Positions 2,069-55,107 of a stretch of 64,000 nt of DNA are shown one piece after another. The DNA is from an uncultured Methanosarcinales archaeon (lineage in GTDB: Archaea > Nanobdellota > Nanobdellia > Woesearchaeales > JACPBV01). Each line of letters opens with the position of its first letter. The first letter of the stretch is position 1. The translations under genes and the position numbers were made by a program. The stretch spans positions 4,878 through 68,877 of the forward strand of contig CAZSRD010000005.1 of the NCBI GenBank assembly GCA_964609455.1, given 5' to 3'. The notes below the pieces were generated by a model that had not been told where the DNA came from, ran no database searches, and was given only the letters and a program-made list of their open reading frames with translations.

Positions 2069-5000
2069 ATGGTTGGGGGGTTAAAGATTAAGAAAATATT
2101 AAGATTACTTTCTATTTTTGTAGTCATCTTCATAGTTTCTTTTTCTCTTGTATATGCATTAGGGGACACTAGGTCAAACTTTTTAAATATGGTACCCTTA
2201 CGTGAAAAACGCGAAATTAATACTTATGAACTTATAAAAAATTTTAACACATTGTATATATTAGATGAATATAACTCATTGCAAGCCCCTAGTGGATATT
2301 TATGGGTGGTTGATTCTCATTTAGGTAATAATAAGTTACTTAAAATAAACCCCTTAGATGGTAGTATAGAGGCCAGTTTTGATATAATTAGTAGCCCAAG
2401 TTTAATAGGTCTCGCTTTTGATGGAAATAATCTTTGGATATCTGATTCTAATAATAATAAGATATATAAATATTCTAGGGCGGGTTTATTACTAAATACA
2501 TATGATTGTCCGTCCCCTTGTCGTTATCCTTATGGCCTTACATGGGATGGAAATAACTTATGGGTTGCAGCAGAAACTTCTACTTATAGGGATTATAAAT
2601 TATTTAAACTATCTTCTGATTTAGGGAGTATACTTACTTCTATTGATATTCCTGTAGAATATCCTTGGGATCCTGAAGGACTAACTTGGGATGGTTCCTA
2701 CCTTTTATATACTGAAGACTCATTTAATGGTTATCTAAGAAAAGTTACGCCGTTAGGACAGATATATTCTAGGATTTATAGTGAATATGATATTTTTGGC
2801 CTTGCTTTTGATGGGCAAAACCCTTGGGTTTCTTTATGGGGTTCAAGTTCTCAACCAGCTTATATTGGGAAACTAGGTGCAGATTATAGGTTAAGTTTTG
2901 CTAAAGAATACCCGGGGATTCTACCTAGAGATTCTGCTTGGGAATCTACGTCGGTTTGTGATTGTGGCTCTTGGTCAAACCAAGGTTGCGGTCAGGGAGG
3001 TTGTGCAGCAGACAAAATGTATCAGACAAGAACATGCAATCCATCTGGTTGTGATACACAATCTCAATGTGTTAGTGATGCAAGTTGTAATCCGCAATGC
3101 TCAGGTACAGACACTTCATGCGGCACTTACCCTAGTTGTACAAACTGCAACTCCAATGATGGCTGCAATGGTGATTCCTATAGGAATTATTATTGTGTAA
3201 GTAATGCTGCTGGATGTAGCTATACATCTGATAACTGTAATGACTGCTCATGCACATGCGGCGGGTATAACACAGCAGAAACAACTGCAAATGGAAATTG
3301 CGGCGATGGAAAAGATAATGACTGTGATGGAGATACTGATGGAGCTGATTCTGGTTGCGCAACATGCTCAGGTACAGACACTTCATGCGGCACTTACCCT
3401 AACTGTTTGAATTGTAATTCTTATGATACCTGCTCAGGAAATTATTATTACAACTATTACTGTTCCGGAACTTCCTGTACTTATTCTTCTGACAGCTGCA
3501 CTGACTGCTCATGCACATGCGGCGGGTATAACACAGCAGAAACAACTGCAAATGGAAATTGCGGCGATGGAAAAGATAATGACTGTGATGGAGATACTGA
3601 TGGAGCTGATTCTGGTTGCCAATCATGTGAATGCAGTTCTGAAGTATGTTGTGATGGCTGCCATTATAAACCTTCAGGAAGCCAGCCAACAGGATATACT
3701 GATGATTCAAATGGGTTCTGTGATGGCTCTAATTCTCCAACAGGAACAAATTATGTAAAGACAAGGGATTATTACTGCGATGGGGTTGACGCAGGTTTAC
3801 ATTATTTAGATACTATAGTTGATACATGCAGTACTTGTGAATACTGCACAAATAATGACTTAACATGCAATTATTATACTTCTTCTACTGTTTGCGGTTC
3901 GCAGGATTGCGACTACCTTGATACAATATGCAGGGACTATATTGATATGAATATGTATTGCAGCGGAAGCAGCAGTACCTGTAGTGCTTTTTGTTCTTCT
4001 TATACAAATGCTCCTGCCGGAACTTCATGTGGGGCTAGTCAGGAATGCGATGGTAATGGAAATTGCATTCAGGTAAGCCATTGCAATAATGGTGTAAAAG
4101 ACTATGATGAGTTAGGTATAGACTGCGGCGGAAGCTGTTCAAATCACGATTGTTGTGAGAACAATTATGAAGATTCTAATCTAGGTGAAGATGGTGTTGA
4201 TTGTGGTGGAGTTTGCCATTATAGTTGTGTTGTCCCAGTTATTTTGGTTCATGGTTATCTTAGCACCTCTGCTTCTTTATCAAATTTTGAGAATTGGTTG
4301 AGGGCAGATGGCTTCGCAGTTTATAATGTTGATTATGCACAGGGTTCTGCTTTTGCTAATGGGGATATTACTGATTACGCAAAAGTCCTATGTAAAGAAA
4401 TAGACCGAATTAGGAGAGTTGAAAAAGTAAATTATGTGGATATAGTTGCTCACTCAATGGGGGGCCTGGTAGCGAGGGAGTGCTTATTGCATTATGAAAC
4501 ACAAAAGGGAGTAAGGAAACTAATAATGTTGGGAACACCAAATCATGGCACTAATGCATTCGAGTCAAGTAAATATTTCACAACCTATATTGTCTCAATA
4601 TTTGATATAGGCCGTGGCTATTTGCAAGATGTTGCTTTATTGAATAGTATATTGGGGGTTGCAAGAAATCAAATGAGAGTATGCTCCCCATTTTTGAATC
4701 ACCTTAATTTTGGCGGAGATGTTGATAAAAGCAAGTGTGAATATCCTGAGAAGAGCACAGATATTTTAGTTAATGAGGTGGAGTATGATAATTTGGCAGG
4801 AGTTGTTGGATTGAGTTCCTTATTTCATCTTAAAAATAATGATATGTTAGTTAGTGTTGTTAGTGCTTATCTGGATGGAGCTTATAGAAATAATCCTGCG
4901 TATGGGTATGACCACTTTAAACTTGTTAAAGAAACAGAAACTTACCAGTGGGTGAAATCTGTCCTGGATGAAGAAGTAGTTGGTTCTTTAAGTAAGCTAA

Positions 5001-7576: not shown

Positions 7577-8799
7577 AGCTTATCTAGAATCTGGCTTATA
7601 TAAAAAACAGGTATAAAATCAATTGCACACCCCTTTTCCTTTCTTTTTCCAGTGAATTGGTCTGCTGCTACAAACCCTTTTTTTGGCCTGTATTTTTCAA
7701 TGAAACTCATGAAGGATCTTGTAACCTTCTCCGATAACAATAGGGATTTTACCTCAAGCGGATAAACTTCATTATTTTTTATTATGACAAAATCAACTTC
7801 TGCTTTGGATTTGGAACGCCAATACCTCAACTCAAGCTCTTTTTTTATAATTTCAGAAGCGATGAAGTTCTCATTCAAAATGCCTTTGTCGATTCTTTTG
7901 TCAAGTTCTTGAAAACTGCTAATTACTATATTTCTGAATCCATTGTCAAAAAAATATATTTTGGGATTTTTGGTTAATTCTATCCTTTTATTGGTATAAT
8001 ATGGCCTGCTCATTTTACAAATAAACGTTTTTTCTAAGATATTGAGGTGCCGCAATAACTCGTAATGGCTGAAACCTGTTAGACTTGACAGTTCGTTATA
8101 GTTAATCAAACCGCCTATCTGCAATGACAGCACTTTAATAAGTTTGCTTAGCTTAAAATCAGCGGTTAACCCTAAAATCTCTTTTATCTCCTTTAGAAAA
8201 TAGGTATTATAGATGTTTTTCAACACTATTTCCTTTTCTTCTTTATTATGGGCAATAACAACTCTGGGGTAGCCCCCATAGGCGGCATATTCTTTGTAAA
8301 GCCCATAAATATGTTTTATGATAATCTTTGATAAATTTCCTTTAGTATAAATTTTTTCATAGATCTCTTTGCCCTTATAGCTTAAAAATTCTTCAAATGA
8401 GAATGGAAAAAGATTAAACACAAAAATCCTTCCAACAAGGTATTTAATGCTTTTAATTGTCAGCCCTGTTGCAGATGAGCCCGATATAAATATTTTGATA
8501 TTATAATTATCATAAATAAACTTGAGACTTTTGCCCCCGTCAGAGGCATATTGAAACTCATCAATAAAGAGGTACTTGTTTGGTTTTACGTATAGCTCTA
8601 TAAATGAGCTTATGTCTGTCATAAAAAGCTCAAGTTTTTCCCTATCTTCAAAATCAATAAATACTGCATTTTTTAGATTTTTAAATATGCGGTTTAGCAG
8701 GGTAGTCTTACCGCATTGTCTTGGCCCCATAACTGCTATGACCTCTTTTTTATTAAGGTACTTTAATAGTGTTTTTTCCAATGTTCTTGGTATGTACAT
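7573..8799 (-). CDS. AAA+ ATPase of the archaeal ATPase/DUF4143 type
   Basis: Walker A motif VMGPRQCGKTTLL. Overall layout typical of AAA_14/DUF4143 proteins. Confidence 0.7.
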   Translation of the reverse strand: MYIPRTLEKTLLKYLNKKEVIAVMGPRQCGKTTLLNRIFKNLKNAVFIDFEDREKLELFMTDISSFIELYVKPNKYLFIDEFQYASDGGKSLKFIYDNYNIKIFISGSSATGLTIKSIKYLVGRIFVFNLFPFSFEEFLSYKGKEIYEKIYTKGNLSKIIIKHIYGLYKEYAAYGGYPRVVIAHNKEEKEIVLKNIYNTYFLKEIKEILGLTADFKLSKLIKVLSLQIGGLINYNELSSLTGFSHYELLRHLNILEKTFICKMSRPYYTNKRIELTKNPKIYFFDNGFRNIVISSFQELDKRIDKGILNENFIASEIIKKELELRYWRSKSKAEVDFVIIKNNEVYPLEVKSLLLSEKVTRSFMSFIEKYRPKKGFVAADQFTGKRKEKGCAIDFIPVFYISQILDKL

Positions 8800-25268: not shown

Positions 25269-26075
25269 CTAGTTTCTAATTTTATCTGCAATTCTTTTGG
25301 CTTCTCTAACAATTCTGGGGATCATATCCAGCCTTATCTCATATTCCCACAATAACTGTTCCATCTTTCTTATTTTTTTCTTGGTGTCTCTTCTTGTTAC
25401 CTTATCAACTTTATTTAAAGATTCTTTCTGTTCTTTTATTCCTTCTCTTAAAGCCCTGATACTTCTCTTTAGTTTTTCTTCTTCAATGTAAAAATTAGAG
25501 TATGCATAAGCCTCACGAATAGATTTTCCTGAACTCATAAAAGATACCATAGACGCTATTCTTGCTTCGATTTCATCATGATTTGTTATAAACAGCAATT
25601 CTTTAGACATCTTACGGCTAGATCTTGGTGCATCAGTCAGTTTTGCTACAGCTCTTTCTATTACCATATCCCTCCTTAGTTCTTCAGGAATATTAATTGT
25701 CATCTTGTTTTGCAGGATATGCTGATATTCATGTATCAACCAGGTTCTATTTCTTGGGTTGCTGTCTAATAGCTTTGCAGCCAGGTCTGGATTTCTTTCA
25801 ATTCTTTCTAGGGCTTGTTCAGACACACCAAATTGATCAATGTAAACATACATTTTCCCTGTTATCCTATTGTGGGCCCTAACACTATTTGCGCTGCCTG
25901 AATATAAGTCATAGAATCCACCAAATAGATGTTTAACAAGAAAACTATTCCTGATTATTACTTTTGGATTAGGCAACATTCCCTTAAAATTAGGATATTT
26001 AACACGAACATATCTTTGCAGATATTCAAAGGTCTTTGGGAATAACTCTGAAAAATAGCCTTTTTTAATGTTCAT
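25269..26075 (-). CDS. hypothetical protein with an HExxH motif; possible zincin-like metallopeptidase
   Basis: WLIHEYQHILQ. Charged helical C-terminal region. Higher GC than the flanks. Confidence 0.35.
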   Translation of the reverse strand: MNIKKGYFSELFPKTFEYLQRYVRVKYPNFKGMLPNPKVIIRNSFLVKHLFGGFYDLYSGSANSVRAHNRITGKMYVYIDQFGVSEQALERIERNPDLAAKLLDSNPRNRTWLIHEYQHILQNKMTINIPEELRRDMVIERAVAKLTDAPRSSRKMSKELLFITNHDEIEARIASMVSFMSSGKSIREAYAYSNFYIEEEKLKRSIRALREGIKEQKESLNKVDKVTRRDTKKKIRKMEQLLWEYEIRLDMIPRIVREAKRIADKIRN

Positions 26076-26198
26076 ATTTGATTATTTATCTGTTGGGATT
26101 ATAAACTTTTTGATGTGAAAACCAACATATTCAAATTAAAAGCAGTAATCTAACTATCTTTATTGAGATGATTGAGTAATTCTGAGTTATATTTATAA

Positions 26199-27176
26199 AT
26201 GCAGATTCGTTCTTCTACTATCAAAATGTCTTATAAACTAAGATATATCACTTTAAATTATCAACCTCCTGTTGCTATTGGATCAGAATCAGTTCTTTAT
26301 AGGGCAGAGGGCAATATGGTTAGGCATCTCTGTGTGAAAGAAGTTAGGCGTGATTCATTTAAAGACTCAAACCATAGACAATCAAGAGAATCAGCAGATA
26401 GAGACTGTATGCAACATGGAATAAACGATAAAGCTCGTAGGGACTCTTATAAGTTTAGAGTGCAACATCTTAGAACTGAAGCTGAAGTCGGAAAGACGTT
26501 ATATGAAGATGGTGAAATACCTGTTGTGCAGGTGTATGCCTTTAGAAGGGTCGGTATTCCTTTTTTTGAGGATGGTTATGACCTTGTTATGGAATATGTT
26601 CCAGGTAAAGACCTTAGTGATAAAGCATTTTTAGATACTTTGTCTTTTGAAGATAAACTAAATTACTTCTTTCAGACAGCATTGGCTTTAAAATATGTTC
26701 ATGGAAAAGGCTATTTGCATTTGGATGGAAAACCAAGAAATATTATGGTTTCTAATGGACATGTAAAACTTATTGACTTTGCTTATAGTTTACCTATTGG
26801 GACAATACCTTCCTTCTTTAGAGGGACTCCCGGGTATAGTCCTCCGGAACAGATTCTTTGTCGTTCTCTTGATGGGGGAACGGATGTATTTTCATTTGGG
26901 GTTGCATTTAATGTTATATTTGGGGGTCCTAAAATAAATGAACAGCTTAGGGGTACTACTTTCTTAAAGGGGTGGTCTGAGGGTGCATTTAATACAAGAA
27001 CACCAGCAGTAGAGACGTCTGATGAATTGAAAGATACTCCTAGGCTTGCCGAACTCATTAAAAGATGCACTATACCAAGAAGGAAGGTTAGAGTGCATAA
27101 TACAGATTTTTTAATTGATGAATTATGGAAGATAGGGAAAGAGTTAGGTATTAAATTGACAGAAACTTTTTCATAA
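26199..27176 (+). CDS. eukaryotic-like Ser/Thr protein kinase
   Basis: VKEV (beta3 Lys), HLDGKPRNI (HRDxKxxN-type catalytic loop), DFAYS (DFG), GTPGYSPPE (APE). Confidence 0.7.
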   Translation: MQIRSSTIKMSYKLRYITLNYQPPVAIGSESVLYRAEGNMVRHLCVKEVRRDSFKDSNHRQSRESADRDCMQHGINDKARRDSYKFRVQHLRTEAEVGKTLYEDGEIPVVQVYAFRRVGIPFFEDGYDLVMEYVPGKDLSDKAFLDTLSFEDKLNYFFQTALALKYVHGKGYLHLDGKPRNIMVSNGHVKLIDFAYSLPIGTIPSFFRGTPGYSPPEQILCRSLDGGTDVFSFGVAFNVIFGGPKINEQLRGTTFLKGWSEGAFNTRTPAVETSDELKDTPRLAELIKRCTIPRRKVRVHNTDFLIDELWKIGKELGIKLTETFS

Positions 27177-27192
27177 AAAACCAACAGAATTC

Positions 27193-28860
27193 TTAGATTA
27201 GTCTTGCCGTTAAAGGAGTGTTTGCGCAGTAGACACTGAAAGTGCTATCTTCCCTGATAAATATAGCATTACAACGGGCATCTCTCGCTTCAGCAAATTT
27301 TTCTCTTGCGTTATCAGTAGCTAGTTGTATCCCTAATTTTGTACGATCCTCATCTAAATCATGGCGTGTTTCTGGGCAGAACCATCTTCCTAAGTCGCCA
27401 CCATAAGACAAGCCTTTTCCATAACTGGCATAATTTAATGCATCTCCATTATACCTGTAAATTCTTGCTTCTGATGTTGCTGTTTTTATCATAAATATAT
27501 GGTTGTCCTCAACTACCCAGACTATGTCGTGAGGTTGCTTGGACATTGTTGTTCTGTATTGAAGGGCTTTTTGCTTTAACCTTTTCATCTCTTCAGCTTT
27601 GGTGTTACAAACACTTGCTTCAATCAGATGTTCTCCTGGGTCTTCCATTGGTAGTACAGATTCTAAATCTGGCCTTTCCCAAACGGATATAGCATCAAAT
27701 GCTGCTCTTTTCAATAGGGCAGTTGCAAATTTTCTTCCGTCTTCATGAAGCCTTTTTATAGCTTCTAGCGTAAACGGCTGCCTTAAATATAATTCTGGAT
27801 GCTTTGAATTTTGGTTTATGTTAATGAGCCTAAGGATATGATCTCCTTCCCATCCGGCGGGCCTTCTCTCTTGAGAGTAAATAGTGAATGCTTCAATTGT
27901 TCTGCTCAACTCTTCTTCCCAGAAGATACTTAAATCTCTGCCAGGCAATATGCTTGTTCCGTCTCTGTATAACCTTGCTGCCAGATTCTTTGTTTCGGAT
28001 TTTAGTTCATACCAATCCCTGCTTTGAACTAAAGACCTAACTTCTTTCCACCACATTTGTGCTGGGTTAAAGGTTGGCCATTCAATTCCCATAAATCTTT
28101 CTTTTGCAAGTGCATCTGCACTCACTACATATGCCATAAATTCCCTTGCATCTGCTCTTCCTTTACCTTTTAGATATTCTTCCCATACAATATTTACGTT
28201 TGCTTTGTAGTTAGAGGTTATATTTTCTTTTTCATCTCCTAATAAAATCGCTAATTTTACTAAATCAATGAATTCATCTTTTTTATCGTCCTTGAGATTA
28301 CCCCTAAAAAGATTTTCATAAAAAAGAGAGCAAAATCTTTTTCTATGCTCTTTTAACATTTCCATTAGTTTGGCGCCATATTGTTCTCTTAATTTTTCGG
28401 CAAAGTCTGGCTGCGCAATTGCTTTTTTTGCCAAAGCATGCCAAACTACTCGATACCATCTTCTCGGTTCTTGGTTATAAATCGATTCATTGTTATGTAT
28501 GTGTACATCACGGTGGTCGAGCAAAGCATACAGTTGTTCAGGAGCATAATATAAAGCAACTGCTTTCTCACATAATCTTTGGGTTCTTGCTACGTCAAGC
28601 TTATTTTCTGTTGGTACATATACTGTTTCTTTTTCAGCTATCTGTTTTACTGCTTCTTCCATCAAAGTTATCTCTGCATCTGACATCTCCTCAAGCCCGC
28701 CTGTGACAGGGTCTTTCAGCCAATCAGTCATTCTACGCTGCCATAATATGTGTACATAAGGATCTTCTGTTCTAGGGAAATCTCCAACTGAATCAAGAAA
28801 CATCTGTGTATCTCTGCTTTTTACCGCTGCTTCAAGCCCCCCAAAGTTTACTTCGGTCAT
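27193..28860 (-). CDS. large hypothetical protein (555 aa) with no recognisable domain
   Basis: Long ORF. Its composition is richer in G+C (noticeably more CGN and GCN codons) than the neighbouring core genes. Confidence 0.4.
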   Translation of the reverse strand: MTEVNFGGLEAAVKSRDTQMFLDSVGDFPRTEDPYVHILWQRRMTDWLKDPVTGGLEEMSDAEITLMEEAVKQIAEKETVYVPTENKLDVARTQRLCEKAVALYYAPEQLYALLDHRDVHIHNNESIYNQEPRRWYRVVWHALAKKAIAQPDFAEKLREQYGAKLMEMLKEHRKRFCSLFYENLFRGNLKDDKKDEFIDLVKLAILLGDEKENITSNYKANVNIVWEEYLKGKGRADAREFMAYVVSADALAKERFMGIEWPTFNPAQMWWKEVRSLVQSRDWYELKSETKNLAARLYRDGTSILPGRDLSIFWEEELSRTIEAFTIYSQERRPAGWEGDHILRLININQNSKHPELYLRQPFTLEAIKRLHEDGRKFATALLKRAAFDAISVWERPDLESVLPMEDPGEHLIEASVCNTKAEEMKRLKQKALQYRTTMSKQPHDIVWVVEDNHIFMIKTATSEARIYRYNGDALNYASYGKGLSYGGDLGRWFCPETRHDLDEDRTKLGIQLATDNAREKFAEARDARCNAIFIREDSTFSVYCANTPLTARLI

Positions 28861-28940
28861 TAATAGAGAAGAATGAATTTTGATTTAAAAAGTTATCTGA
28901 AAAAACTAAAAAAACCAACAATTTTATATATAAAACGATT

Positions 28941-28966
28941 AATCCCCTTTATTAGCCCAGCTTAGG
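28941..28966 (+). repeat. degenerate partial copy of the tRNA-Tyr 5' end (aatcccctttattagcccagcttag versus ctatccccgcttag)
   Basis: CCCAGCTTAG versus CCCCGCTTAG at the genuine tRNA start, 880 bp downstream. The pair flanks the LAGLIDADG ORF. Confidence 0.45.
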
Positions 28967-29018
28967 ATTTTGGAATGTCCTTTTTTAATTTTTGTATTTT
29001 CCATAAAGTTAGAGTAAT

Positions 29019-29816
29019 ATGAAAAACAAAAAAATTTCAAAAAAAGACCTTATTCAAGAAGTACATAATCTGGAACTTACATTACATAGGAGGCCAGTTA
29101 AAAGGGATAACGCAACATTATACAAAAATTCTAGAGAGTTTTTTGGTTCTTGGAATAAGATGTTATTTTCAGCAGGATACTCTGTTCAATTTTTACAAAA
29201 AATAGGTTCATATACATTTAATCATAATTTTGCATATTTTTTAGGATTATTAATCACTGATGGGCATATTGCTTATGATAAAAGACGAGAAAACTACAAA
29301 GTGGCCATCTATACTAGTTATCCAGACGAAAGAGATATGTTAGTAAAACTAATCAGGCATATATTTGAGTATAATGCACGTATTAGCAAGAAGAAGGCAG
29401 GGTATAATGTGAAATTTAATTTTGAAGTTAGGATAAATTCTAAAAAGCTTGCTGAGGATTTAATTGATGATTATTGTATTCCTTCAGGTAAAAAATCTTT
29501 AAACGTTCGTTTACCAAATTTCTTATTTAATACACAAATAAGGTGTAAGGAATCTTTTTTAAGGGGGGTTATTGATGGTGATGGTTCTATTACAAAGAGG
29601 GGAATAAAAATTGTATCTGGTTCTACACTTTTCCTTAAAGATTTGAAACATTTTTTATTCACTTTAAAAATTCACACTGGTAGTATTATAAAGGAGCACG
29701 ATAGAAATACTTATTCAATTAGGATTAATAAGAAAGAAGATTGGATTAAAATTAAACGAATTTACTCTTTTGGATATTTCTATAAGCGAAAGAGAGAAAG
29801 TATCAATAAGATTTAA
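29019..29816 (+). CDS. free-standing double-motif LAGLIDADG homing-endonuclease-like protein
   Basis: Two LAGLIDADG motifs: FAYFLGLLITDGHIAYD and FLRGVIDGDGSITK. Confidence 0.75.
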   Translation: MKNKKISKKDLIQEVHNLELTLHRRPVKRDNATLYKNSREFFGSWNKMLFSAGYSVQFLQKIGSYTFNHNFAYFLGLLITDGHIAYDKRRENYKVAIYTSYPDERDMLVKLIRHIFEYNARISKKKAGYNVKFNFEVRINSKKLAEDLIDDYCIPSGKKSLNVRLPNFLFNTQIRCKESFLRGVIDGDGSITKRGIKIVSGSTLFLKDLKHFLFTLKIHTGSIIKEHDRNTYSIRINKKEDWIKIKRIYSFGYFYKRKRESINKI

Positions 29817-29844
29817 ATAGGAGAAGCTAACCTCCCTGTACTAT

Positions 29845-29999
29845 CCCCGCTTAGTTTAGACTAACATTTTTTAGTGTTGGGAACAATGGCTAGAACGGTC
29901 GGCTGTAGATAAGATCACTTACTGACTTTGCATTTTGCATAGAATGAAAGTAAGTCAGCTGGTACCGACAAATCCCTGGTTCAAGTCCGGGAGCGGGGA
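29845..29999 (+). tRNA. tRNA-Tyr(GTA) with a canonical 55-nt anticodon intron and a probable second intron of about 27 nt in the D-arm
   Basis: Acceptor CCCCGCT/AGCGGGG. Anticodon arm GTCGG-CTGTAG[intron]A-CCGAC. T-arm CCTGG-TTCAAGT-CCGGG. The D region is 46 nt instead of 19. Mature length would be 73 nt. Confidence 0.7.
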
Positions 30000-30131
30000 T
30001 TTCTTATTTTTTATTTTATTTCTTGATATATTTTCTTGATGTATTAAAAATAGTAAACTTTATATACTTCCTATAATATTATATTGAATATTACTTAAAA
30101 TATTTGAAATAATATTATTCAAAATACTAAA

Positions 30132-30287
30132 ATGGGCTATAGAGTAAAGATACAGGAGACAAACAGGGGGCAAAAGATATTGAATATTCCAAAAGTAGTT
30201 TCAGCGCTGTTTAATTTAAAGCGCGGCATGGAATGTGAGTGGGTGTTGGAGAAGGGGGAGTTGACGCTAAAAGTTCCAAATAGGTAA
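30132..30287 (+). CDS. small AbrB/SpoVT-like (swapped-hairpin) DNA-binding protein, 51 aa; not in the ORF track
   Basis: MGYRVKIQETNRGQKILNIPKVVSALFNLKRGMECEWVLEKGELTLKVPNR resembles the VapB/AbrB pattern. Confidence 0.3.
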   Translation: MGYRVKIQETNRGQKILNIPKVVSALFNLKRGMECEWVLEKGELTLKVPNR

Positions 30288-30452
30288 AATTTAGTGAATT
30301 ACCTATCAAAAAACGATAGATTTAAATATAATGAGGAAATTCAACGCATAATGGCAGTTAATCTTTCTTTAGTTGAAATGCTATGATATTGAGCGTTATA
30401 TAATTATAAGAGGAAGAACTGCCTTTGCAATATAAAACAAAGCAGATATGGT

Positions 30453-30541
30453 GCCCTGGTGGTGTAGTGGCCTATCATGAAGCCCTGTCGATGCTATAGA
30501 AGCAGAACGGCTTCGACCCGAGTTCGAATCTCGGCCGGGGC
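30453..30541 (+). tRNA. tRNA-Asp(GTC) with an intron of about 17 nt in the anticodon loop
   Basis: GCCCTGGTGGTGTAGTGGCCTATCATG-AAGCC-CTGTC-G[ATGCTATAGAAGCAGAA]C-GGCTT. T-arm CCGAG-TTCGAAT-CTCGG. Acceptor 3' strand CCGGGGC. Closely matches archaeal tRNA-Asp. Confidence 0.8.
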
Positions 30542-30544
30542 GTA

Positions 30545-30657
30545 GGGCCCGTAGCTCAGCCTGGTTAGAGCGCCTCACTTTTAATGAGGTGGCCGCGCGT
30601 TCGAACAGCAGGTCAGCCAAAGGTTGATCACGACGCTCTGAAAATCGCGTCGGGCCC
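30545..30657 (+). tRNA. tRNA-Lys(TTT) with a non-canonical intron of about 39 nt in the T-loop
   Basis: GGGCCCG-TA-GCTC-AGCCTGGTTA-GAGC-G-CCTCA-CTTTTAA-TGAGG-TGGCC-GCGCG-TTCGAA[39 nt]T-CGCGT-CGGGCCC-A. Starts 3 nt after tRNA-Asp. Confidence 0.7.
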
Positions 30658-30674
30658 ATTTTAAAGTCATTAAA

Positions 30675-30917
30675 ATGAAAAAGAAATACGATGTAAACGA
30701 ACACGCGCTGGTTCCTGAACACTCTAAACTAAATGATAAAGAGAAGAAGGACCTCTTGGAAAAGTATCATATTTCTTTAAAGGAACTTCCTAAGATAAGT
30801 AAAAAGGATCCTGCTATCGCCAATCTTAATGTAAAAGAGGGGGATGTAATAAAGATAACAAGGAAAAGTCAAACAGCAGGTGAAGCTATATTCTATAGGG
30901 GTGTAATTAATGTATAA
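30675..30917 (+). CDS. rpoH: DNA-directed RNA polymerase subunit H (Rpb5-like)
   Basis: HALVPEHSKLNDKEKKDLLEKYHISLKELPKI...GDVIKITRKSQTAGEAIFYRGV. Confidence 0.9.
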   Translation: MKKKYDVNEHALVPEHSKLNDKEKKDLLEKYHISLKELPKISKKDPAIANLNVKEGDVIKITRKSQTAGEAIFYRGVINV

Positions 30918-32391
30918 ATATTCTAAAACCTTAATTGCAAAACATTTTAAGGATCAAAGCTTTGTAGATTCAAACATAGCTTCTTTTAATGATTTTGTTG
31001 ATAGGGATTTAGCAAATATAATAGGGGAGAATAAAGAGGTTGTTCCCACAATCTTGCCCCATAATATTGATGATTTTAAGATAAACTTGGACAAGATATG
31101 GGTTACTAAACCAGAGATAACAGAGGCAGATGGAAGCAAAAGGAATATCTACCCGATAGAGGCTAGATTAAGAAAATTAACTTATTCTGCTCCTGTTTTC
31201 ATTGAAGTTTCTGCCCATATCAACGGCGTCCAAAGAGAAAGTTTCACTACACAGATTGGAAACCTGCCAATAATGCTGAAGAGCAAGAACTGCCATTTGC
31301 ATAAATTGAGCAGGGAAGAGCTTATTGAAAAAGGAGAGGATCCTGACGATCCAGGCGGATATTTTGTGATAAATGGAACTGAAAAGGTTTTGATAAATAT
31401 AGAAGATTTAGCCCCTAACAGGGTGCTTGTCGAGAAAGCATCAGGCCCTTCAGAATTTGTAGGCAAATTGTTCTCTGAAAGAGGCTCTTTCAAAATCCCC
31501 CATACCTTAGAGAGAAAGAAGGATGGACTTTTCTATCTTACTTTTACAAGAATTAAAAGAGTGCCTATTGTCGTTATAATAAAAGCTTTAGGCCTGTTAA
31601 AAGATGAGGATATAATGAATTTTGTTTCTAGAGACAAAAAATATGATGAGGTTCTTATCAATCTGTTTGAATTTGTGGATATAAAGGCAGAAGAAGAAGC
31701 TTTAGACTATATTGCTAAAAAGGTTGGAATAACACAAAGCAAAGAGATCAGAGTAGAGAGGATGAAAGAAATTTTAGACAAATATTTATTGCCCCATCTC
31801 GGAGTTAATAAGGAAGACAGAATATATAAGGCTTATAATCTGTGCAAAATAATCAGGCGCTTCATTAATGTAGCTGATGGAACATTAAATGTGGCGGATA
31901 AGGACCATTATATGAATAAAAGGCTGAAGTTAAGCGGAGATCTGTTAGGGGATTTGTTTAGGGTTAATTTAAAGGTCTTGATAGGAGACTTGTTATATAA
32001 TTTTCAGAGGATTGTTAAAAGAGGCAAATTCCCATCTATCAAAGTTATCATCAGGGATAAACTTTTGACGCAGAGGATTTATTCTTCTATGGCAACAGGC
32101 AATTGGGTTGGCGGCAGAAAAGGAATTTCGCAGAGAATCCAGAGATTGAATTTCTTAGAGTCATTAAGCCATCTGCAAAGAGTTGTCTCACCATTGTCCG
32201 CTTCACAGGAGAATTTTGAGGCTAGAGAACTGCATAGCACTCATTTGGGGAGATTATGCCCAATAGAAACTCCAGAAGGAACCAATATTGGGTTAAGGAA
32301 AAATCTTTCATTATTATGCTCTGTTTCATCAGAAGGAAATGAGGAAGAAACATTGAAATCATTAAAAAACCTGGGGTTAAAGGGTTATTAA
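30910..32391 (+). CDS. rpoB2: RNA polymerase subunit B'' (N-terminal half of Rpb2)
   Basis: Typical split-B layout. Motifs GYFVINGTEKVLI, GNWVGGRKG, CPIETPEGTNIGL. Confidence 0.9.
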   Translation: MYKYSKTLIAKHFKDQSFVDSNIASFNDFVDRDLANIIGENKEVVPTILPHNIDDFKINLDKIWVTKPEITEADGSKRNIYPIEARLRKLTYSAPVFIEVSAHINGVQRESFTTQIGNLPIMLKSKNCHLHKLSREELIEKGEDPDDPGGYFVINGTEKVLINIEDLAPNRVLVEKASGPSEFVGKLFSERGSFKIPHTLERKKDGLFYLTFTRIKRVPIVVIIKALGLLKDEDIMNFVSRDKKYDEVLINLFEFVDIKAEEEALDYIAKKVGITQSKEIRVERMKEILDKYLLPHLGVNKEDRIYKAYNLCKIIRRFINVADGTLNVADKDHYMNKRLKLSGDLLGDLFRVNLKVLIGDLLYNFQRIVKRGKFPSIKVIIRDKLLTQRIYSSMATGNWVGGRKGISQRIQRLNFLESLSHLQRVVSPLSASQENFEARELHSTHLGRLCPIETPEGTNIGLRKNLSLLCSVSSEGNEEETLKSLKNLGLKGY

Positions 32392-54102: not shown

Positions 54103-54175
54103 ATCACAATATCTTCTCTTCTTCTTTATCTTTAGAGTTCTCCATAATTTTTTATGATTAAAAAGAATAAAAAAT

Positions 54176-54294
54176 GCGAGGAGGAGGATTCGAACCCCCG
54201 TAAGCACTAAGCTAATAGGTGTCTTACAAAAGTGACCTAAGCTTGGACATTTCTTGAGAAAATCTATCCCGTTTGGCCACTCCGGCATCCTCGC
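54176..54294 (-). tRNA. intron-containing class II-type tRNA (long variable arm, discriminator A; Leu-like), intron about 36 nt, anticodon not resolved by eye
   Basis: Minus strand GCGAGGA-TG-CCG-GAGTGGCCAAA-CGG-G-ATAGA...CCTAT-(AGC-TTAGT-GCT)TAC-GGGGG-TTCGAAT-CCTCC-TCCTCGC. Acceptor and T-arm pair perfectly. 119 nt in total. Confidence 0.65.
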
Positions 54295-54946
54295 ATTTGA
54301 AACGCTTATTGATTCTCTCAAGCTTTTCTGTGTTTTGTAATGGTAAAAGCTTTAAAAATTTATCTATTTCTCCTTTGTAAATCCTAATCCCATAAAACTC
54401 TTTATTGTATCTCTTGTTAGTCCATCTTTCTTTTAGATGTTTAATACCAAATTCGTTAAGGAGTTCTATTGTTCCTTTATGAAGAATTTGGCTTGCAGTT
54501 GTAAACCCTAAAGAATTGCCCCTGAATCCACCATCTGTATCAAAATATCCTGCTAGAAAGCAACTTTTAATTTCTTTTGAAGAGTTTTTTATTTTATTTG
54601 GAACAAAAACTATGGAACTTTTAGCTCCTTTTGGAATTTCCATTTCTTCGGACAAAAACTTAAATAACCTTTTATTCCTAACTTGAAAATATAATCTTTC
54701 CATCCTATTTCCATAAATTTTTGGAGATTGGGGTTGACTTTTTGTATAAATTAAGGATTTAATTACTTTACTTAAGTAGACAAGGTATTCTTTGTCTGAT
54801 ATATCTATTCTTATTTGATAATCAGTAGAATGATCAGTTTTAGATTTTGATGAGTTTACTATATGCCCATCACCAATTATAACTCCTACAAGATAAGCGG
54901 TTTTGGGAGTAAGCTTAATCTTTGATTCAATTTTTTTATTATTCAT
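54224..54946 (-). CDS. free-standing double-motif LAGLIDADG homing-endonuclease-like protein; its 3' end runs into the tRNA
   Basis: YLVGVIIGDGHIVNS and FLAGYFDTDGGFRG. Confidence 0.7.
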   Translation of the reverse strand: MNNKKIESKIKLTPKTAYLVGVIIGDGHIVNSSKSKTDHSTDYQIRIDISDKEYLVYLSKVIKSLIYTKSQPQSPKIYGNRMERLYFQVRNKRLFKFLSEEMEIPKGAKSSIVFVPNKIKNSSKEIKSCFLAGYFDTDGGFRGNSLGFTTASQILHKGTIELLNEFGIKHLKERWTNKRYNKEFYGIRIYKGEIDKFLKLLPLQNTEKLERINKRFKCEDAGVAKRDRFSQEMSKLRSLL

Positions 54947-55087
54947 TTAAATCACTAAATTTTACTTAGTTGAGACTATTTAAATGATTTTTAGTTTTTT
55001 TAGCAAAAATCATAATTTAATAGTCGAAACATTATTTAAAGTGATTTAAATATAAAAGAATTGGAGTTTAAATATCTTGCTTAATTT

Positions 55088-55107
55088 GACCACTCCGGCA
55101 TCTCCGC
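55088..55107 (-). repeat. degenerate partial copy of the 54176-54294 tRNA 5' end (GCGGAGATGCCGGAGTGGTC versus GCGAGGATGCCGGAGTGGCC)
   Basis: 17 of 20 positions identical. Located on the far side of the LAGLIDADG ORF from the intact tRNA. Confidence 0.5.

Follow-up and report, generated by a model that had tools for sequence, protein, structure and literature searches.

The 64,000-nt stretch of DNA analysed here (positions 4,878 to 68,877 of contig CAZSRD010000005.1; hereafter the window) holds four tRNA genes, for tRNA-Tyr, tRNA-Asp, tRNA-Lys and tRNA-Leu, with six introns in total, three of which are non-canonical. Comparison with orthologous genes makes it very probable that the genes are functional and that their inserts are introns of the archaeal bulge-helix-bulge (BHB) type; the host is a Woesearchaeota (DPANN) archaeon. 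tRNA genes with several or non-canonical BHB introns are a known class, for DPANN archaea too at survey level, and the new detail lies in the exact junctions, large-scale covariation at the 59/60 and 15/16 sites, a 7-nt micro-exon and a conserved kink-turn (k-turn). The foremost new point is a recurrent layout in which a tRNA relic, a LAGLIDADG gene and an intron-bearing tRNA gene follow one another.

Splice junctions of the interrupted tRNA genes

Exon and intron borders were drawn by a hand parse of positions 29500-31000 together with spliced alignment to orthologues, in which intron-less orthologues set the junctions without any splicing model, and the BHB motif was scored solely at junctions set independently by this comparison. 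At a 4-bp helix flanked by two 3-nt bulges, the archaeal splicing endonuclease EndA cleaves each bulge behind its second base (PMC4090602); the 4-bp helix is denoted H below, the outer helix h and the inner one h'.

The tRNA-Tyr(GUA) gene (29845-29999, plus strand) comprises exons 29845-29859, 29887-29908 and 29964-29999, as given by the hand parse, spliced alignment and ARAGORN, and has an acceptor stem CCCCGCU/AGCGGGG with the archaeal C1-G72 pair, a D-stem GUUU/GAAC, an anticodon stem GUCGG/CCGAC and a T-arm CCUGG-UUCAAGU-CCGGG. The anticodon stem differs by compensatory changes from that of two related loci, L007 and L012 (GUCGG:CCGAC versus CUCCG:CGGAG). An earlier note on this DNA had deduced a second intron in the D-arm, and such an intron is indeed present, a non-canonical insert of 27 nt (29860-29886, plus strand) in the D-loop between G15 and U16 (site 15/16). 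Nine tRNA-Tyr genes that lack the LAGLIDADG gene described below have a D-loop of the AGUGGCUA type without insert in the spliced alignment and read UAGUUUAG|UGGCUAGAAC or similar; because these insert-less orthologues place the junction at G15/U16, it is unambiguous and admits no sliding. In the BHB geometry, H is formed by GUUU (nt 10-13) and GAAC (29881-29884) with all four pairs (4/4), the bulges are AG|A and AA|U, the inner hairpin has 8 bp and the outer helix none (h' = 8, h = 0), and the motif is the best-scoring one in the gene.

The 55-nt anticodon-loop intron that the same note had reported in tRNA-Tyr is the canonical 37/38 intron at 29909-29963 (plus strand; spliced alignment and BHB geometry), which can also be written as 29910-29964 because an A flanks both ends. 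Its H (CUGU:GCUG) has 3/4 pairs, with a U33.U mismatch, h = 5 and h' = 1; the 3' site lies in a proper 3-nt bulge (GU|A) and the 5' site in a loop of about 10 nt, giving a bulge-helix-loop form. This intron occurs in 10/10 tRNA-Tyr genes of rpoB loci, with G(n-5), C(n-4) and G(n-2) kept as judged by eye.

In tRNA-Asp(GUC) (30453-30542, plus strand; ARAGORN, Rfam and orthologues), an intron of about 17 nt had been placed at or near position 37, and orthologues and BHB geometry now locate it exactly at the canonical 37/38 site, after G37 (30491-30507, 17 nt, plus strand). The junction is set by two intron-less tRNA-Asp genes (L007 and L009) reading ...CUGUCG|CGGCUU..., and H (CUGU:GCAG) is complete (4/4), with bulges CG|A and AA|C, h = 7 and h' = 1. 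The tRNA-Lys(UUU) gene (30545-30658, plus strand; orthologues and hand parse) carries the T-loop insertion of about 39 nt that had been noted before, a non-canonical intron at 59/60 (30606-30644, 39 nt, plus strand; orthologues and BHB geometry); the T-loop is uninterrupted (TTCGAAT/TTCAAAT) in tRNA-Lys of loci L051, L072, L074 and L082. Its H pairs UUCG (nt 54-57) with UGAA (4/4), the bulges are AA|C and AA|U, the T-stem itself serves as outer helix (h = 5), and h' is 0, or 3 bp if a 1-nt bulge is allowed. The spacer between tRNA-Asp and tRNA-Lys, previously given as 3 nt, measures 2 nt (TA, 30543-30544), between the discriminator G30542 and G30545. CCA is not encoded in the tRNA-Tyr, tRNA-Asp or tRNA-Lys genes.

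All junctions of these three genes therefore follow the second base of a 3-nt bulge that adjoins a 4-bp helix, except the 5' site of the tRNA-Tyr 37/38 intron with its larger loop, and BHB motifs, which the earlier note had named as the check on its proposed boundaries, are present at all four introns with relaxed outer helices. The strict hBHBh' form is not attained, the tRNA-Tyr, tRNA-Asp and tRNA-Lys introns all being relaxed in one or both of the helices outside H. The junctions predicted by the BHB geometry coincide with those taken from intron-less orthologues, and once the inserts are taken out ARAGORN calls standard tRNAs, namely tRNA-Tyr(gta) of 73 nt, tRNA-Asp(gtc) of 73 nt, tRNA-Lys(ttt) of 75 nt and tRNA-Leu(tag) of 84 nt. 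The general description of this cluster as one of multiple and non-canonical introns is thus upheld in its junctions and BHB motifs, here in a DPANN host, with the correction that only two of its four introns (tRNA-Tyr 15/16 and tRNA-Lys 59/60) are non-canonical.

A scan of the whole window for acceptor and T-arm sequences revealed only one further tRNA gene, at 54175-54294 on the minus strand, which is intron-bearing too. It encodes tRNA-Leu(UAG) with two introns, as judged from an Rfam tRNA match of 36.8 bits (E-value search), the acceptor/T-arm scan and orthologues at loci L173-L175. A non-canonical intron of 21 nt (54243-54263, minus strand) interrupts the anticodon stem at 30/31, with H GGAU:GUCC (4/4, by eye) and bulges AG|A and AA|G, and a canonical 37/38 intron of 15 nt (54221-54235, minus strand) has H CUUA:UAAG (4/4, by eye); between the two introns lies a middle exon of only 7 nt, GCUUAGG (54236-54242, minus strand). 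The orthologues at L173-L175 have the 30/31 intron only. Several one-intron and two-intron parses of this gene failed before the orthologue comparison, and a reading of the 'CUCAAGA' hairpin as a Leu(CAA) anticodon loop was rejected, since L173-L175 show UAG to be the anticodon and the hairpin to belong to the 30/31 intron as its inner helix.

Covariation between exon and intron strands

Across 80 related species with the same syntenic site, each gene has 0 to 3 inserts, situated in the D-loop, the anticodon stem (about 30/31), at 37/38 and in the T-loop, and the 59/60 site is occupied in about half of the tRNA-Asp and tRNA-Lys genes examined in the lineage. We read 81 T-loop inserts from tRNA-Asp, tRNA-Lys and tRNA-Tyr genes of the window and these species in the 59/60 geometry. 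H was complete in 65 of the 81 and had 3/4 pairs in 15, and with the intron strand slid by 1-3 nt the count was 0-3 of 81. The facing bases change together: A57 is opposite U in 31 cases and never opposite C, G57 is opposite C in 21 cases and U in 19, and C55 is paired with G. For the tRNA-Tyr 15/16 intron, H was complete in 31 of the 32 genes scored automatically, with GUUU or GUUC in the exon accompanied by GAAC in the intron and GCUC or GCUU by GAGC, so that U11:A exchanges with C11:G. The helix of the tRNA-Leu 30/31 intron likewise covaries across 4/4 loci (for example GGAU:AUCC and GGCC:GGCC). Covariation of a helix formed jointly by exon and intron implies selection on the structure of the precursor, which speaks against both pseudogenes and retention of the inserts in mature RNA.

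In loci L007-L086, 5' of rpoH, up to three introns were seen per tRNA-Asp or tRNA-Lys gene, and insert sites there include the D-loop after nt 16-21 and the anticodon stem at about 30/31. A few relatives (e.g., L020, L022 and L039) have T-loop inserts of 130-210 nt.

Alternatives and the splicing machinery

That the interrupted genes are pseudogenes, with functional intron-less copies elsewhere in the genome, would account for the failure of standard detectors, which missed or mis-called tRNA-Tyr, tRNA-Lys and tRNA-Leu. Nevertheless, the exons are intact and yield canonical cloverleaves after splicing, the stems differ between lineages by compensatory changes, and genes with 0-3 inserts occupy one syntenic site in 80 species, the pairing segment of the intron covarying with the exon; we therefore consider this explanation highly improbable. 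Retention of the inserts in the mature RNA as D-loop or T-loop expansions, or their removal without EndA, for example by self-splicing, is scarcely credible: nothing positive speaks for it, apart from EndA being missing from the sequence searched, the inserts would break the anticodon stem as well as the contacts between G18/G19 and the T-loop, a group I or group II ribozyme needs far more than their 15-55 nt, and their sole conserved feature is a 4-nt segment located 2 nt before the 3' junction and complementary to four exon bases ending 2 nt before the 5' junction, which is the ruler of EndA.

Several observations weigh against the assignment as BHB introns. A naive BHB scan gives many chance motifs in these AT-rich sequences, and for this reason the case rests on the match to independently set junctions and on covariation. 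The helix of the tRNA-Tyr 37/38 intron contains the U.U mismatch, and a pairing of nt 29-34 with CAGCUG competes with it. Finally, EndA and RtcB genes are absent by Pfam search from the called genes of the 72.9-kb contig, and phmmer with the Methanocaldococcus jannaschii EndA (a query that matched PDB 1a79 at 371 bits) found no match either in the window or among related loci totalling 1.36 Mb.

Processing of archaeal tRNAs by RNase P, RNase Z, EndA, an RtcB-type ligase and CCA addition is established biology, and the window's genes would fit into it as follows. tRNA-Tyr would be transcribed alone, and tRNA-Asp and tRNA-Lys are probably co-transcribed, since their spacer is only 2 nt; RNase P and RNase Z would trim the ends of the precursors. 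Exon bases beside each insertion site would pair with an intron segment near its 3' end to form the 4-bp helix, putting both junctions in 3-nt bulges, after whose second base EndA would cut; an RtcB-type ligase would then join the exons, and CCA would be added. Because the outer helices are incomplete (none at tRNA-Tyr 15/16, a loop at tRNA-Tyr 37/38, weak inner helices in tRNA-Lys and tRNA-Asp), the splicing enzyme would have to accept relaxed motifs. According to the Kaneta 2018 survey (PMC5829648), which includes one Woesearchaeota genome, several DPANN lineages combine raised tRNA gene disruption with an alpha4 EndA that bears an additional 'L3' loop at its C-terminus. The relaxed motifs described here would fit this literature on the L3-loop EndA, as a statement at the level of the lineage.

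Detection of such genes by standard programs is poor. Of the four genes in unspliced form ARAGORN picked up two, tRNA-Asp and, with a wrong end, tRNA-Lys, and missed tRNA-Tyr and tRNA-Leu; at its curated gathering threshold the Rfam tRNA model matched, of the four, tRNA-Asp in full and only the 5' part of tRNA-Lys. Minimum free energy folds of the unspliced genes were uninformative. The non-canonical intron models of tRNAscan-SE were trained on Crenarchaeota, Euryarchaeota and Thaumarchaeota (PMC8450103). Given the use of the 59/60 site in about half of the tRNA-Asp and tRNA-Lys genes examined, default tRNA finders can be expected to under-call tRNAs in Woesearchaeota genomes.

A k-turn in the canonical tRNA-Tyr intron

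The 37/38 intron of tRNA-Tyr contains a k-turn hairpin (29917-29955, plus strand; ACUUACU-GA-CU ... AG-AAU-GA-A-AGUAAGU). Its form, a freely covarying helix of 4-7 bp, GA opposite xAU-GA and a short closing hairpin, is that of the k-turn consensus, and the motif is found in 47 of 60 distinct tRNA-Tyr genes as against 8.7% of shuffles, or, with a helix of at least 6 bp, in 28 of the 60 as against 1.4% of shuffles. Two L7Ae-family genes lie within the window, and L7Ae is a putative binder of this k-turn; such binding may help to present the poorly structured 5' splice site of the intron. A literature search on k-turns in tRNA introns returned nothing specific.

An intron that served as a box C/D guide RNA, as that of tRNA-Trp does in Haloferax, would likewise have a kept k-turn, here with D'-like xUGA and C'-like RAUGA elements, and the two L7Ae-family genes would suit it as well. 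The terminal C and D boxes are missing, however, the 5' ends of the introns being unconserved and their 3' end being the BHB helix, and the two arms on either side of the k-turn are base-paired to one another with covariation, hence are not free guides. With only an internal k-turn present, we rejected the guide RNA reading, which we judge improbable.

LAGLIDADG genes 5' of tRNA-Tyr and tRNA-Leu

Two of the four tRNA genes, tRNA-Tyr and tRNA-Leu, share a layout consisting of a 5' relic of the tRNA, a LAGLIDADG gene and the complete tRNA gene with a non-canonical intron, and in both the relic ends 5-7 nt short of the position of that intron.

At tRNA-Tyr the gene, here called LAG1, encodes a free-standing double-motif LAGLIDADG endonuclease of 265 aa (29019-29816, plus strand; Pfam and I-DmoI profile), with an I-DmoI-like core (Pfam LAGLIDADG_3/Hom_end), an N-terminal HNH_repeat and a weak WhiA-domain match (Pfam). 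The profile of the LAG1 family matches I-DmoI residues 6-175, its full length, with an E-value of 1e-8, and D81, D186 and D188 are invariant across 30 homologues. The family has 58 members of about 265 aa, all in Woesearchaeota or Nanoarchaeota; homologous loci were collected by exact look-up (four) and by a metagenome scan (80; loci L089-L155). LAG1 is not encoded within an intron, its open reading frame (ORF) lying 5' of a complete tRNA gene. The gene ends 28 nt before tRNA-Tyr, and its stop codon falls inside TTTAAATA (29812-29819), a TATA-like box 26-33 nt 5' of the tRNA. This linkage recurs: in 47 of 51 distinct assessable LAG1-family genes a tRNA-Tyr gene follows 24-92 nt 3' on the same strand, in differing wider genomic contexts, and LAG1 is missing from 80/80 rpoB-linked relatives. 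The 15/16 intron was present in 33 of the 47 LAG1-linked tRNA-Tyr genes versus 0/9 of those without LAG1 (Fisher p = 1e-4, uncorrected for phylogeny).

The relic of tRNA-Tyr 5' of LAG1 corresponds to nt 1-10 (CCCAGCTTAG, 9/10 identical; 28956-28965, plus strand) and is preceded by a promoter-like stretch at 28922-28936 (AAAAACCAACA..TTTTATATATAAAAC). Because relic and promoter stretch together are orthologous to the promoter and nt 1-10 of tRNA-Tyr genes without LAG1 (L007 and L012), LAG1 can be placed inside an ancestral tRNA-Tyr gene. The relic always stops after G10, 31-57 nt 5' of the start codon; among 46 distinct LAG1 loci, 25 have it with no more than two mismatches to their own tRNA (null 3%), and it tracks the acceptor sequence of each lineage. 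By this comparison LAG1 uses the old tRNA promoter, and the predicted promoter of the working tRNA copy is the new TATA-like box TTTAAATA. Two other readings of the arrangement were rejected. A giant intron holding the LAG1 ORF, with the relic as its 5' exon, would have a junction at 10/11 that is without a BHB motif (GCUU against GCUU pairs 2/4 by hand check), and in the case of integrase-type att integration (SSV/pNOB8) the segment from relic to tRNA (28966-29844) was found to hold only LAG1.

At tRNA-Leu, LAG2 encodes a 240-aa LAGLIDADG protein (54224-54946, minus strand; Pfam LAGLIDADG_2/_3) of a family different from that of LAG1, and its ORF runs into the 5' 71 nt of the tRNA gene. Of LAG2 we found 64 homologues, and a tRNA-Leu(UAG) gene with the 30/31 intron adjoins in 4/4 loci examined (the window and L173-L175). 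A relic of tRNA-Leu nt 1-23 (20/23 identical; 55085-55107, minus strand) is located 161 nt 5' of the LAG2 start codon; a corresponding relic was not found in L173-L175. There is no proper TATA box before tRNA-Leu, which may be co-transcribed with the LAG2 ORF.

Origin of the layout

We infer that the layout of tRNA and LAGLIDADG gene originated through a mobile endonuclease cassette. Under a tentative homing scenario, the cassette would have inserted into the tRNA gene, after nt 10 in tRNA-Tyr and after nt 23 in tRNA-Leu, taken the old promoter and the first tRNA bases for its own transcript, and supplied the tRNA with a new promoter and a replacement 5' segment. The BHB intron (15/16 or 30/31) would have arisen in the cassette, would move with it and would split the presumed cut site.

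The pairs may instead be old vertical synteny with a domesticated DNA-binding protein (e.g., WhiA-like), the association of LAG1 with the 15/16 intron reflecting shared ancestry only and no mechanistic link. The LAG1 family is uniform in length with few members per cluster, the WhiA-domain match, although weak, points the same way, the D-loop intron is missing in 14 of the 47 LAG1-linked tRNA-Tyr genes, including a basal clade that keeps the relic, and the D-loops of some carriers are the same as those of non-carriers. On the other hand, the relic marks an insertion inside the tRNA after nt 10 and tracks lineage acceptors, which is hard to fit to one ancient event; the catalytic Asp residues are invariant; loci with LAG1 (the window and L091) and without it (L007 and L012) are patchily interleaved at equal RpoB'' identity (84-87%); and a second, unrelated LAGLIDADG family has a like layout at tRNA-Leu. 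Weighing these points, we regard domestication within old synteny as a strong contender whose likelihood stops somewhat short of an even balance. That LAG1 and LAG2 are, or were until recently, homing endonucleases targeting tRNA genes, with the intron travelling in the cassette, is a possibility that we put forward tentatively and consider rather doubtful.

Carriers without the intron fall, in a neighbor-joining tree built from LAG1 proteins, into a single basal clade and at least eight scattered tips, a distribution suggesting that the 15/16 intron was probably gained after the insertion and lost repeatedly, and that carriers do not require it. The proposal that the intron is an obligatory immunity for the endonuclease carrier is weakened accordingly, 14/47 carriers being without it and some carrier D-loops equalling those of non-carriers. 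A literature search on free-standing LAGLIDADG genes beside archaeal tRNA genes returned nothing specific.

Host lineage and neighbouring genes

The window comes from a metagenomic contig of 72.9 kb (ENA ERZ27248937 k141_820373), and the tRNA gene sequences recur at 100% identity in four other assemblies, made from different samples (ENA ERZ27248920, ERZ27248939, Logan SRR8437217 and JGI 3300028168); since the same sequence appears in five assemblies, the tRNA inserts are not an assembly artefact. The tRNA cluster is followed 3' by rpoH, a split rpoB and rpoA'/A'', and the order tRNA-Asp, tRNA-Lys, rpoH, rpoB is kept across 80 related loci. Among species-representative genomes, the nearest RpoB'' relatives (74-87% identity) are nearly all labelled Woesearchaeota, Nanoarchaeia or Nanoarchaeota (DPANN), and by this placement the host is a Woesearchaeota (DPANN) archaeon. 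Many of the closest genomes bear the title 'uncultured Methanosarcinales archaeon' and a single one that of 'Aminicenantes bacterium', with RpoB'' 73-87% identical to that of the window and of Woesearchaeota; from their position among Woesearchaeota sequences, the bins behind these titles were most likely mislabelled.

Between the S10 gene and tRNA-Tyr lie about 4.5 kb of lineage-specific sequence (window 25269-29816 versus L007 3773-4373), which comprise a 268-aa ORF, a eukaryotic-type Ser/Thr protein kinase gene (26199-27176), a 555-aa ORF without Pfam match and LAG1. L091 has only the kinase and LAG genes of this region and L007 none of its genes; no longer direct or inverted repeats were found around the region. 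A 51-aa ORF without Pfam match (30132-30287, plus strand) is located between tRNA-Tyr and tRNA-Asp, and L091 has a 52-aa gene (8106-8264) in a comparable place between tRNA-Tyr and rpoH. Beyond the start of the window the contig encodes an 884-aa protein with Hint/PT-HINT domains (L176, 2004-4658), and a Fic-domain gene is found immediately 5' of the window, so that with the Hint/PT-HINT protein the contig carries further domains of self-splicing or mobile type.

Significance and comparison with known systems

The introns are a further well-documented case of a known class, resolved at the level of junctions and backed by covariation. They are outweighed in importance by the endonuclease cassettes, which bear on how non-canonical tRNA introns are gained. 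If the homing interpretation were true, the cassettes would give DPANN archaea a concrete way, at the level of DNA, of acquiring and spreading such introns, and would be an archaeal counterpart of 'collaborative homing', in which a free-standing endonuclease is combined with an ORF-less intron.

LAG1 resembles I-DmoI in its monomeric double-motif LAGLIDADG fold, its archaeal host and its association with BHB introns. I-DmoI is encoded inside the intron that it mobilises, whereas LAG1 and LAG2 are free-standing 5' of the tRNA, and the linked introns (15-41 nt) are too small to encode anything. Free-standing endonucleases beside their targets are known from T4 SegB in a tRNA gene cluster and from F-CphI with the cyanophage psbA intron ('collaborative homing'); in cyanophages the carrier allele owes its protection to an ORF-less intron located at the cut site. 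The present layout is similar in having the endonuclease gene beside, not inside, the presumed target gene, but SegB and F-CphI come from phages and involve GIY-YIG or other nuclease families and group I introns.

Non-canonical BHB introns have been reviewed for tRNA genes of Thermoproteales and thaumarchaea (PMC4090602, PMC4033280; for tRNAscan-SE 2.0, PMC8450103). Like these crenarchaeal and thaumarchaeal introns, the ones described here are short, lie outside 37/38 with up to three per gene, are missed by standard finders, and have a 4-bp helix with two 3-nt bulges and often relaxed outer helices; unlike them, they belong to a DPANN woesearchaeote and not to a member of TACK. The Kaneta 2018 survey (PMC5829648) concerns the same superphylum and, in the part considered, has more disrupted tRNA genes where EndA bears the insert; that part is a genome-level count, whereas the present analysis treats junctions, covariation and loci. 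In the case of Haloferax volcanii, whose tRNA-Trp intron is a box C/D guide RNA (PMC4090602), a k-turn element likewise sits within a canonical 37/38 tRNA intron, but the tRNA-Tyr intron has one k-turn, without terminal C/D boxes or free guides.

The closest parallel to the cassettes is the disruption model for tRNA-Thr(GGU) of Caldiarchaeum subterraneum (Sugahara 2012, PMC3293823), a single locus with a recombinase element and the sole published snapshot of intron gain that we found. As at tRNA-Tyr and tRNA-Leu, a 5' fragment and an inserted element precede a complete tRNA with an extra non-canonical intron near the end of the fragment, the gene of the element adjoins the tRNA on the same strand, and the state is polymorphic among close relatives. 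In Caldiarchaeum the element is of 1.8 kb with a putative recombinase (pNOB8-like att recombination), and the fragment comprises nt 1-27, overlapping the intron site at 24/25 (PMC3293823). Here, in contrast, the insert is of about 0.9 kb with a LAGLIDADG endonuclease as its sole gene, the relic stops 5-7 nt short of the intron site, and the arrangement is found again at dozens of metagenomic loci and with two different tRNAs. This recurrence, together with a directly testable nuclease target, makes the idea that a mobile element brings the intron experimentally approachable, and the layout of relic, gene and intron-bearing tRNA extends the single-locus disruption model to a new type of element.

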